Below are positions 7,490 to 57,717 of a stretch of 64,000 nt of DNA, one piece after another. The stretch comes from Escherichia phage P896. A program made the translations under genes and the position numbers. The stretch lies in sequence record OL451225.1; one strand, 5' to 3'. Numbering within the stretch: the stretch's first letter is position 1; every line of letters begins with the position of its first letter. The notes below the pieces were generated by a model. The model did no database searches. It was not told where the DNA came from and saw nothing but the letters and a program-made list of their open reading frames with translations.

Positions 7490-7567
7490 ATGGTTTTCCT
7501 TTTAACAGTTGGTTTATTGTGTAACTCAGTATGGAATCATTATGTCCTAAGACAAGGGGCTTGTACA
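7490..7567 (-). promoter_or_regulatory. T4-type early promoter + conserved leader (family B)
   Basis: Minus strand GTGTACA...CATAATGATTCCATACTGAGTTACAC...ATG. Confidence 0.6.
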
Positions 7568-56623: not shown

Positions 56624-56660
56624 AAAAAACCCCAACCTTTCGGAAGGGGCCATACCTTGT
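56624..56660 (-). terminator. Rho-independent terminator
   Basis: Minus GGCCCCTTCCGAAAGGTTGGGGTTTTTTT (interrupted stem + T7 run). Confidence 0.6.
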
Positions 56661-56688
56661 CGGGGTTCCACCTGCAAGGCAAGTGTTC

Positions 56689-57072
56689 TTATCCGCGAGC
56701 AAAGGCCATTGCAGCGCGTTCGTTGGCACGGTCAGTGATGTTCAAGAATTTATCACGAGCGATTTCGATTGGAGCACCAACCCAGTCAGCGGCACCATTA
56801 CCTGGAGACTGTTTAGGACGAACCATATAAGTTGAAACTTTGGAACCAGCTAGTTTAGCACCAGGTGCTGCTGCGTTTTTAACATCTTTAGCTTTGATGC
56901 CAAACCCAGTTACGATACCCCAAGAAACGCCATTAACTGGTTTCTTGAACATAACACGGTCACCAATTGAAACACCGGCTTTTTCTGGAGCCACTAAAGA
57001 AAATTTGCCAGCTTCAGTCAGTACGGATTCGGTGATGGTATTGCGATTTAAAAATTCTGCATATGTAAGCAT
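56689..57072 (-). CDS. Internal-protein-like late protein with variant CTS (127 aa)
   Basis: N-terminus MLTYAEFLNRN resembles MKTYQEFI CTS; TATAAATA late promoter ~35 nt upstream. Confidence 0.55.
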   Translation of the reverse strand: MLTYAEFLNRNTITESVLTEAGKFSLVAPEKAGVSIGDRVMFKKPVNGVSWGIVTGFGIKAKDVKNAAAPGAKLAGSKVSTYMVRPKQSPGNGAADWVGAPIEIARDKFLNITDRANERAAMAFARG

Positions 57073-57103
57073 TTTGTTTTTCCATTATTAGGGTTGTTGT
57101 TAA

Positions 57104-57111
57104 TATTTATA
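57104..57111 (-). promoter_or_regulatory. T4-type late promoter (TATAAATA)
   Basis: Plus tatttata = minus TATAAATA upstream of 56689..57072. Confidence 0.55.
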
Positions 57112-57114
57112 TTC

Positions 57115-57300
57115 CATAGTACCGGATGCACCATCCGCTCGGATTTCTCATACTACCGGACGCACCGTCCGCTCTGGAAAAACTCCGTAAAAGGGTGCGC
57201 CGTTTCTGCTGTGATATAAGGGGACATCAACAAATCGTAAAGATTTATTAATGCCAGTCCTTAAACAGGGAACATCAGTCCGACGACTTACCGGTAGCGA
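57115..57300 (-). ncRNA. Candidate structured small RNA region downstream of tRNA-Arg (cf. T4 stable RNA species C/D)
   Basis: Non-coding; tandem near-identical hairpins CGGATG-CAC-CATCCG (57123-57137) and CGGACG-CAC-CGTCCG (57157-57171). Confidence 0.3.
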
Positions 57301-57309
57301 CCCGGTTTC

Positions 57310-57549
57310 TCATTCAATTGTAATAGCTAATTTGACTTTAACAACCTTATAATTGGAATCAAGGTCATTGAATTCCATAAAATTTGTTGCTAATCTGCGA
57401 GTCGGGAAACTTAGATATTTATTATGCTCAGGTGGAGCAGTTAATGCAAACCATGGGACTTGTTTATCATTTTCATCAAACTCATCAAAGCTATAAACCA
57501 GCTCGTTGCTGGTTATATCCATAACTGCATATGATTCACTAATAACCAT
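57310..57549 (-). CDS. Hypothetical acidic protein (~79 aa)
   Basis: Start set at MVISESYAVMD so as not to overlap tRNA-Arg. Confidence 0.45.
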   Translation of the reverse strand: MVISESYAVMDITSNELVYSFDEFDENDKQVPWFALTAPPEHNKYLSFPTRRLATNFMEFNDLDSNYKVVKVKLAITIE

Positions 57550-57564
57550 AATATCCTCAGTAAT

Positions 57565-57641
57565 TGGTCGGGGTGGTGGGATTCTAACCCACAACCTACG
57601 GTTTAGAAGACCGTTGCTCTATACAATTAAGCTACACCCCG
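57565..57641 (-). tRNA. tRNA-Arg (anticodon TCT), CCA encoded
   Basis: Cloverleaf read by eye: acceptor CGGGGTG/CACCCCG, anticodon arm ACGGT-CTTCTAA-ACCGT, T arm GTGGG-TTAGAAT-CCCAC. Confidence 0.7.
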
Positions 57642-57643
57642 GG

Positions 57644-57717
57644 TGGCCCCATCCGGACTTGAACCGGAAACCTGCCAGTTATGAGCCGGATGCTCTAACC
57701 AATTGAGCTACAGGGCC
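57644..57717 (-). tRNA. tRNA with CAT anticodon (Ile-lysidine type as in T4, or Met)
   Basis: Acceptor GGCCCTG/TGGGGCC, D arm GCTC-AATTGGTTA-GAGC, anticodon loop CTCATAA, T arm TCCGG-TTCAAGT-CCGGA; directly abuts tRNA-Arg. Confidence 0.8.

Follow-up and report, generated by a model that had tools for sequence, protein, structure and literature searches.

An rnaD ortholog, twin hairpins and a putative late-gene cassette in place of rnaC in the T4-like Escherichia phage P896

Gene order of the hairpin locus

The window analyzed here is a 64,000-nucleotide stretch of Escherichia phage P896 (sequence record OL451225.1), a T4-like myovirus of the genus Gaprivervirus that is close to VR20. A preliminary description, made from the sequence alone, pointed to two tandem hairpins in a non-coding stretch downstream of a tRNA pair. 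We conclude with high confidence that this flagged stretch is composed of rnaD, a small stable RNA gene of T4, followed by the 5′ part of a late-gene cassette that has taken the place of rnaC. The locus is 95-98% identical to those of TH54, DK-13, UPEC07 and VR20, and every gene around the hairpins is carried by the minus strand. The features are listed below, with the basis of each assignment; open reading frame is abbreviated as ORF, Shine-Dalgarno as SD and minimum free energy as MFE.

57642-57717, minus strand: tRNA-Met (CAT), found by ARAGORN and by the Rfam tRNA model (62 bits)
57565-57641, minus strand: tRNA-Arg (TCT), found by ARAGORN and by the Rfam tRNA model (72.5 bits)
57310-57552, minus strand: ORF80, a conserved ORF of 80 codons between tRNA-Arg and rnaD (phrog_33509, E = 5e-57; VR20_146)
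57194-57314, minus strand: rnaD ortholog (T4 species 2 RNA), 90% identical to T4 rnaD over 121 nt, from BLAST matches to annotated features and from alignment
57175-57183, minus strand: GUUUUUCCA, candidate anti-SD strand directly 5′ of hairpin 1 (MFE and centroid folds; shuffles)
57157-57171, minus strand: hairpin 1, CGGACG-GUG-CGUCCG (repeat unit 57177-57147; covariance model score, 46 bits)
57123-57137, minus strand: hairpin 2, CGGAUG-GUG-CAUCCG (repeat unit 57143-57113; covariance model score, 45.2 bits)
57104-57111, minus strand: TATAAATA, match to the T4 late-promoter consensus and putative promoter, by its position and its invariance in nine relatives
57076-57084, minus strand: UGGAAAAAC, SD region of ORF127 with the AUG 3 nt further on, read from the sequence
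56689-57072, minus strand: ORF127, 127 codons, an orphan putative late gene from the ORF list, whose N-terminus is similar to the capsid targeting sequence of T4 internal head proteins
56624-56688, minus strand: terminator-like element, 77% identical to the T4 element after rnaC, with a near-identical flank in SP18 and CJ20

The hairpins had been placed in an ORF-free region of about 190 nt right after tRNA-Arg. That layout did not hold. The conserved ORF80, whose family (phrog_33509) has no assigned function, intervenes, and the first few bases of rnaD overlap its stop codon. The actual non-coding stretch covers 237 nt of the minus strand (57309-57073), and rnaD makes up half of it.

Small stable RNA genes

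The non-coding stretch was compared by BLAST with 50,697 phage records. Hundreds of T-even phages share its first 119 nt (78-97% identity), and in T4T, RB27 and RB10 the match lands on the annotated rnaD (species 2 RNA). Positions 57314-57194 of the minus strand correspond to positions 1-119 of T4 rnaD (90% over 121 nt, E = 1.6e-41) and share 95% identity with rnaD as annotated in RB27 and RB10. Both ends of the gene are invariant in the alignment (45 nt at the 5′ end, 25 nt at the 3′ end). The upstream two thirds of the flagged stretch are therefore the rnaD ortholog. Its homology stops at ...GGCGCACC (57194), and the hairpins (57171-57123) begin 19 nt later, outside the gene. No match to rnaC (species 1) was found in the whole window at E < 0.9, and no tRNA-like domain was found in the hairpin segment, where ARAGORN and Rfam return only the two tRNAs of the locus.

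The suggestion that this region is the counterpart of T4 species C and D thus stands for rnaD and falls for the hairpins, rnaC being absent. In T4, band C is the species 1 RNA (rnaC) and band D the species 2 RNA (rnaD). As in T4, a true rnaD ortholog with invariant ends lies downstream of tRNA-Arg; unlike in T4, an ORF is inserted between tRNA-Arg and rnaD, and a cassette, to which the hairpins belong, holds the place of rnaC. The function of T4 rnaC and rnaD is still unknown (PMC3014915; PMC12685909).

In most of these phage records rnaD is left unannotated. The deposited genomes MW233709 (L005, 195-347) and OQ845958 (L010, 154-408) carry coding sequences for a 'hypothetical protein' over rnaD and the hairpins, on either strand, and given the homology to rnaD these coding sequences are probably spurious. 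A stretch left blank or given doubtful coding sequences in most GenBank records can now be annotated as rnaD, a conserved structured element and a putative late gene whose product resembles an injected internal protein.

Two further observations concern rnaD itself. Its central segment of about 50 nt is swapped for unrelated sequence in UPEC01, TH41, TH44 and pEC-M719 (loci L005, L006, L008 and L010), and a third version is found in SP18, with the 5′ 45 nt and 3′ 25 nt constant throughout; the gene thus seems to combine a conserved frame with an exchangeable middle domain. The 3′ end of rnaD (57194-57202, CGG-C-GCACC) is also complementary to the loop and 3′ strand of the hairpins (GGUGC-RU-CCG; 57123-57133 and 57157-57167). 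This GGUGC/GCACC pairing appeared in one MFE structure, where it replaced hairpin 2, and was set aside as probably due to chance, the Kanagawavirus locus having the hairpins and no rnaD.

Sequence and fold of the twin hairpins

Exact searching and folding agree with the earlier claim of two near-identical hairpins, about 34 nt apart, each with a 6-bp stem and a 3-nt loop. Exactly two copies of the 20-mer ACCGGAYGCACCRTCCGCTC are present on the plus strand, at 57121-57140 and 57155-57174, with 34 nt from start to start. No third copy exists in the 64-kb window even with up to three mismatches, and with that tolerance the 20-mer arose in none of 100 shuffles. The repeat lengthens to 26 nt at 88% identity (57115-57140 versus 57149-57174). 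Read in the sense of the surrounding genes (minus strand), unit 1 is GAG-CGGACG-GUG-CGUCCG-GUA (-9.3 kcal/mol) and unit 2 is GAG-CGGAUG-GUG-CAUCCG-GUA (-7.9 kcal/mol). That the two hairpins are paralogous copies of a unit of about 34 nt is well supported.

The whole non-coding stretch with rnaD (57312-57073) folds better than its shuffles in the sense orientation (z = -2.6) and not in the antisense orientation (z = -0.8); for the hairpin-containing leader by itself, z = -1.3. Apart from the tRNAs, Rfam 15 has no match in the region at E values up to 10. This silence carries no weight, since T4's own rnaC and rnaD match no Rfam family.

Several other readings were rejected. Site calls and inspection of the sequence gave no convincing sigma-70, MotA-box, antisense promoter or terminator sites, and no sigma-70-like site was called on the minus strand between 57200 and 57073. 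A coding repeat was likewise discarded: only mechanical ORFs of at most 41 amino acids overlap the units, and the substitutions keep the pairing, not a reading frame.

The cassette in place of rnaC

The hairpin half of the stretch matches only 15 records, all Gaprivervirus, in addition to a short match in Kosakonia phage 305. The hairpins and ORF127 are found in the identical set of 15 phage records and in no others. SP18 and CJ20, which belong to Gaprivervirus and have no hairpins, show the order rnaD (ending in GGCGCACC), rnaC (139 nt) and then CAAACACTTGCCTTGCAGG...GGTTGGGGCTTTTTT. In the window, rnaD with the same GGCGCACC end is followed by a block at 57193-56689 and then by GAACACTTGCCTTGCAGG...GGTTGGGGTTTTTTT, the same downstream flank as in SP18. 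This 505-bp block contains the spacer, hairpin 1, hairpin 2, TATAAATA, the ribosome-binding site and ORF127. Its breakpoints fall directly after ...GGCGCACC, 19 nt upstream of hairpin 1, and directly behind the stop codon of ORF127. On the right, the replacement is bordered by the terminator-like element at 56624-56688, a homolog of the element that follows rnaC in T4, SP18 and CJ20. Because SP18 and CJ20 carry rnaC between the same flanks, a clean replacement of rnaC by this block in this Gaprivervirus subgroup is well supported by the comparison of sequences.

The window and SP18/CJ20 together offer a natural case of a small RNA gene exchanged for a protein-coding cassette in the hyperplastic region of tRNA and internal protein (IP) genes. 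With phages that have rnaC and phages that lack it in one genus, such a comparison may shed light on the roles of rnaC and rnaD, a question now 50 years old.

Late promoter motif and ORF127

The late-promoter motif that had been noticed at the downstream edge of the region was recovered: TATAAATA, at 57111-57104 on the minus strand, matches the T4 late consensus. It lies 11 nt past hairpin 2, and the ATG of ORF127 (57072) comes 31 nt downstream of it. With 7 occurrences in the window versus 5.1 expected, the octamer shows no enrichment, so its weight comes from its position and from its conservation in all nine aligned relatives.

ORF127 is 100% identical in 14 of the 15 records and 99.2% identical in the remaining one, and forms a single cluster among 5.8 billion proteins. 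Searches for its function gave no Pfam or PHROG match, and no homolog was detected beyond its leader. That leader, MLTYAEFLNRNTITESVLTEAG (MLTYAEFL...ITE/LTE), has Y4, F7 and L8 followed by I/L-x-E motifs. It resembles the leaders of the T4 internal proteins ipII and ipIII (MKTYQEFIAEA), with which it shares Y4 and F7, and of ipI (MKTFKEFTS...ITEA), and its locus also lies in the IP/tRNA hyperplastic region. Unlike the T4 proteins, ORF127 is an orphan beyond the leader, with putative packaging and cleavage; the 60 nt that precede the starts of T4 ipII and ipIII are, moreover, free of such hairpins. Residues Tyr4 and Phe7 have been reported to direct capsid targeting (PMC9026906), and T4 IP gene cassettes with a conserved capsid targeting sequence have been described (Repoila et al. 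1994, as cited in PMC4122927; Mullaney & Black 1996, as cited in PMC9026906). VR20 annotates ip6 and ip9 about 2 kb from the locus. ORF127 is thus a candidate for a new injected internal head protein. Leaders similar to that of ORF127 were also seen in the phrog_2280 genes of RB27, Kanagawavirus and EcS1.

The same module in other phages

The hairpin pair is also present in Kanagawavirus, namely in Kosakonia 305, IME523, Q7622 and CIP9, and in L294 (an IMG/VR contig) and L336 (a metagenome contig). The order there is a strong stem-loop, GGGUAUCU, GAG-CAAGCG-GUG-CGCUUG-GUA, a spacer, GAG-(C/U)GGACG-GUG-CGUCC(G/A)-GCG and AAUAU-GAUAAAUA. The pair lies 8 nt upstream of a late-promoter-like GATAAATA motif, which is followed by a gene starting with MLNFNEF(I/L)... 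(phrog_2280). Between hairpin 1 of the window and hairpin 2 of Kosakonia 305, CCAGAGCGGACGGTGCGTCCGG is identical at 22 of 22 positions, with diverged flanks. Since Kanagawavirus has rnaC and no rnaD upstream of the hairpins, these travel with the promoter and gene start and not with the small RNAs. EcS1, CHI14 and Vettismorki have one degenerate unit with a broken stem, and in RB27 the phrog_2280 gene and TATAAATA come straight after the rnaC terminator, with no hairpin.

These comparisons bear on a first alternative, that the hairpin segment is a small stable RNA of its own, or a 3′-extended rnaD, functionally replacing rnaC. The segment is non-coding and takes the rnaC position immediately after rnaD, its two G+C-rich hairpins could shield a processing product of about 60-80 nt, and the whole stretch with rnaD shows the sense-specific folding described above, which fades in the hairpin leader by itself. 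We nevertheless rate this as improbable: the segment has no rnaC homology, no tRNA-like domain of the kind that enables rnaC processing, and no promoter or terminator of its own. In Kanagawavirus, moreover, the hairpins follow rnaC and a strong stem-loop and so coexist with rnaC, and their strict co-occurrence is with the downstream gene module, not with rnaD.

Elsewhere, a covariance model found only the two tandem copies in a search of the window and of VR20 1-50,000 and 64,000-170,336; the 50-64 kb part of VR20 was not searched directly with it, and the window covers the homologous region. It found no copies in the T4 or RB27 tRNA regions. Matches to one or two hairpins in pattern scans of IMG/VR were mostly discarded as G+C-rich chance hits or Gly-rich, collagen-like coding repeats with non-complementary stems, and the complementarity filter was passed only by known T4-like loci. 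In a scan of JGI metagenomes, 2 of 24 matches were real, both of them T4-like.

We give almost no credence to a further explanation, an RNA decoy that mimics a host repeat RNA (a type III antitoxin such as ToxI, or a CRISPR repeat) and acts against a defence system. A tandem non-coding hairpin repeat of about 34 nt in a phage would suit such a role, as would a downstream gene resembling an injected internal protein of the counter-defence type. There are only two copies, however, a search of 5,426 complete E. coli genomes and 72,556 PLSDB plasmids gave no similar element, and an Rfam match is absent.

Covariation of the hairpin stems

Nine distinct hairpin units from Gaprivervirus and Kanagawavirus were compared. 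All of their stem cells hold standard pairs (54/54, 100%), and five of the six stem pairs have changed on both sides (C-G to U-A, G-C to A-U twice, A-U to G-C, and C-G to U-A). Neither the observed pairing nor the covariation score was reached in any of 500 shuffles, and the signal collapses when the partner is moved by 1-3 columns; both results come from few, related units in a cassette that may have moved horizontally. The only single-sided changes are in hairpin 2 of TH44/TH40 and hairpin 2 of L336, and both give G.U on the sense strand and A.C on the other. As G.U arises on the sense strand only, these two events are weak evidence in favour of an RNA in the sense orientation.

Ten positions are invariant: the GAG flank, the G-GUG-C hairpin top and the G after the stem. 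This pattern would suit a tandem operator, in which a phage or host RNA-binding factor (protein or RNA) would read the GAG 5′ flank, the G-GUG-C loop with its closing pair, and the 3′ G, and would control processing, stability or translation of the transcript. The positions outside the variable pairs are constant in 9/9 units across two genera, with five of six stem pairs varying; the CCAGAGCGGACGGTGCGTCCGG identity with Kosakonia 305 persists despite the diverged flanks; and two copies are kept in both lineages. We still hold an operator to be unlikely. No candidate factor was found, and GUG is, to our knowledge, no recognition loop in T4 biology. The shared sequence may reflect recent horizontal transfer of the cassette rather than constraint, and the single broken unit of EcS1, CHI14 and Vettismorki shows that the downstream gene can do without the motif. 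Given the invariant loop and flanks, an operator or a small RNA retains some probability, although even when taken together the two range from quite unlikely to somewhat unlikely. We find it distinctly unlikely that the pair serves as an RNA element recognized by its sequence, or as a novel small stable RNA in the place of rnaC, read by a phage or host factor; if a factor did read the invariant GAG...G-GUG-C...G, it could decide what becomes of the tRNA/rnaD precursor or regulate how the injected internal protein is expressed.

The remaining alternatives, a relic, a DNA-level element and the decoy discussed above, are less likely. The first of these, which we regard as improbable, is that the units are functionless relics: degenerate stem-loops of a terminator or of a promoter/stem-loop cassette, duplicated by slippage at the joint, with the palindrome kept by template-switch correction of the DNA. 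In the known cassettes of this kind (PeSL, with an early promoter, and PmSL, with a middle promoter; Arbiol et al. 2010, Comeau et al. 2014), a stem-loop that adjoins a promoter, an SD and a start codon dampens transcription coming from upstream and marks gene-replacement joints, and the cassettes were proposed to stop early expression from spilling into late genes (PMC2839356; PMC4122927). Comeau et al. described degraded PeSLs with multiple stem-loops, which they put down to recombinational slippage (PMC4122927). Such a history would suit units that stand exactly at the replacement breakpoint, and the few substitutions in the near-invariant Gaprivervirus cassette cluster in the stems, as would fit quasi-palindrome mutagenesis. 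Relics would not be expected, however, to keep every stem cell paired in two genera, with three of the pairs swapped in hairpin 1 of Kanagawavirus, to show G.U on the sense strand only, to keep loop and flanks invariant, or to retain exactly two copies in both lineages.

A role at the DNA level seems very improbable. The 6-3-6 palindromes lie about 25-80 bp upstream of the predicted late start and at a recombination joint, where they could be bound by a protein as palindromes, or serve as a hairpin or cruciform in replication, recombination, clamp loading for late transcription or endonuclease targeting. The co-varying half-sites speak against a dimeric DNA binder, and the single-sided changes are A.C mismatches on the other strand. 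Six base pairs are generally too short for cruciform extrusion, and T4 late promoters are not known to need an upstream element.

A possible insulator of the late gene

We tentatively favour a different reading, whose chances we put a little short of even: the hairpins would act as stem-loops in the sense-strand RNA and shield the late, internal-protein-like gene from transcription running on out of the stable-RNA operon. Because they lie upstream of the late promoter, late transcripts cannot hold them, and they can act only in read-through RNA or in DNA. No terminator is predicted between the tRNA-ORF80-rnaD unit and the hairpins. Early and middle transcripts would read through from this operon, and the hairpins would act there as sense RNA, marking the end of the operon and insulating the late gene. 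They may attenuate or structure the read-through RNA and could form a barrier to 3′-exonucleases.

A long-range helix may add to this effect. GUUUUUCCA (57183-57175) is perfectly complementary to UGGAAAAAC (57084-57076) over 9 nt, and the helix is present in the MFE and centroid structures alike when the sequence from the 3′ end of rnaD to +40 of ORF127 is folded. Its enclosed loop contains both hairpins and the late promoter. Of 2000 dinucleotide shuffles made from the 80-nt spacer, 9 gave a perfect complement of at least 9 nt to the translation initiation region (TIR). The GUUUUUCCA/UGGAAAAAC helix, which encloses the hairpins, would keep ORF127 poorly translated from read-through RNA. Transcripts from the late promoter would start inside the helix, without the hairpins or the anti-SD strand, and would be freely translated.

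A similar arrangement is known for T4 e, soc, 49 and I-TevI, in which the TIR is hidden in long early transcripts and late transcripts, starting inside the structure, escape (PMC3014915). The locus resembles these leaders in that the late promoter (57111-57104) lies between GUUUUUCCA and UGGAAAAAC. It differs in that the helix closes a loop of about 90 nt with two hairpins, not a compact local stem-loop, and in that the predicted energetic effect is small and covariation support absent.

Several results weigh against insulation. For the helix, the cost of opening the TIR is 3.9-4.5 kcal/mol in the read-through RNA versus 3.2 in the late RNA, a small gap; with rnaD included in the fold, the anti-SD strand pairs locally in the MFE structure instead; and both strands are invariant in all nine aligned relatives, which leaves no covariation test. 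The SD run is one A shorter in the metagenomic relative L337, and the equivalent long-range helix of Kanagawavirus has just 5 bp (UAUCU/AGAUG); in that genus a helix of 8 bp, GAAUAUGA/UCAUAUUC, is conserved across the late promoter and reaches up to the SD. For the hairpins, no U-tract follows either of them (GUAGUAUGAG and GUACUAUGGA follow), and no intrinsic terminator was called here on the minus strand. The invariance of loop and flanks beside varying stems is unexplained by a pure structural spacer, and template switching at a DNA palindrome can create 'compensatory' changes in one step with no selection on RNA. The related gene of RB27, with a late promoter and no hairpins, indicates that such a gene does not require them. 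Finally, the read-through, the use of the late promoter and the formation of the hairpins in vivo are predictions.

On this insulator reading, the hairpin element would be a late-promoter counterpart of the PeSL promoter/stem-loop cassettes. As in PeSL and PmSL, the stem-loops of the window are just upstream of a promoter, with SD and AUG within 40 nt of TATAAATA; the element lies in the hyperplastic region, exactly at a gene-replacement boundary; and the same module heads different genes in different phages. The differences are also clear. The motif is late-type TATAAATA and not a sigma-70 early or MotA middle promoter, two short 6-bp hairpins with an invariant GUG loop stand in place of one G-tract/C-tract stem, and by the covariance model the element is a single locus per genome and not a dispersed family. 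The hairpins lack a U-tract, and their terminator activity is putative. The arrangement of stem-loop(s), promoter, SD and conserved gene start could be a joint at which T4-type phages exchange accessory genes, and the presence of this 5′ module in front of a different gene in Kanagawavirus would then be accounted for. Should the hairpins prove to insulate the late gene, cassettes of promoter and stem-loop, described for early (PeSL) and middle (PmSL) promoters, would have a late counterpart as well.

The processing or regulatory element proposed in the preliminary description is compatible with these findings. A promoter/terminator pair, which that description had named as the case that would speak against its small-RNA idea, comes close to our best reading of stem-loops plus a late promoter, except that the hairpins have no U-tract.

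A second possible partner of the ORF127 ribosome-binding region was also noted. The 3′ end of ORF80 (57363-57339) is complementary to 57076-57100 on the minus strand at 15 of 19 nt (-14.3 kcal/mol). It was rejected as a second anti-SD partner: 40 of 1000 shuffles equal it, which is marginal, and processing of rnaD would part it from the SD.

Other structured and repeated elements

In VR20, the upstream regions of ip6 and VR20_152 (L308, 7800-7860 and 8133-8190) contain a 10-bp hairpin, GATGGGATAA...TTATCCCATC, around a TATAAT box, which is a further stem-loop-plus-promoter arrangement in the same hyperplastic region. A conserved non-coding segment of about 90 nt (...GGCGAATGGTACCTCTGGGTGCGACTACGTACAGCGCC...) is found in Kanagawavirus and Winklervirus between rnaC and the stem-loop that precedes the hairpins (L011, 1340-1430; L251-L256, about 590-680). 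It looks structured, matches no Rfam family and may be a further small RNA. Finally, the 24-nt motif CATAATGATTCCATACTGAGTTAC occurs seven times on the minus strand of the window versus 0 expected, at 7521, 34876, 35465, 49109, 55124, 55650 and 56538. It was upstream of a small ORF wherever checked and overlaps a sigma-70-like call (TTGACC-16-CATACT, 56572-56545). The copies resemble early promoter cassettes of the PeSL type in this phage.

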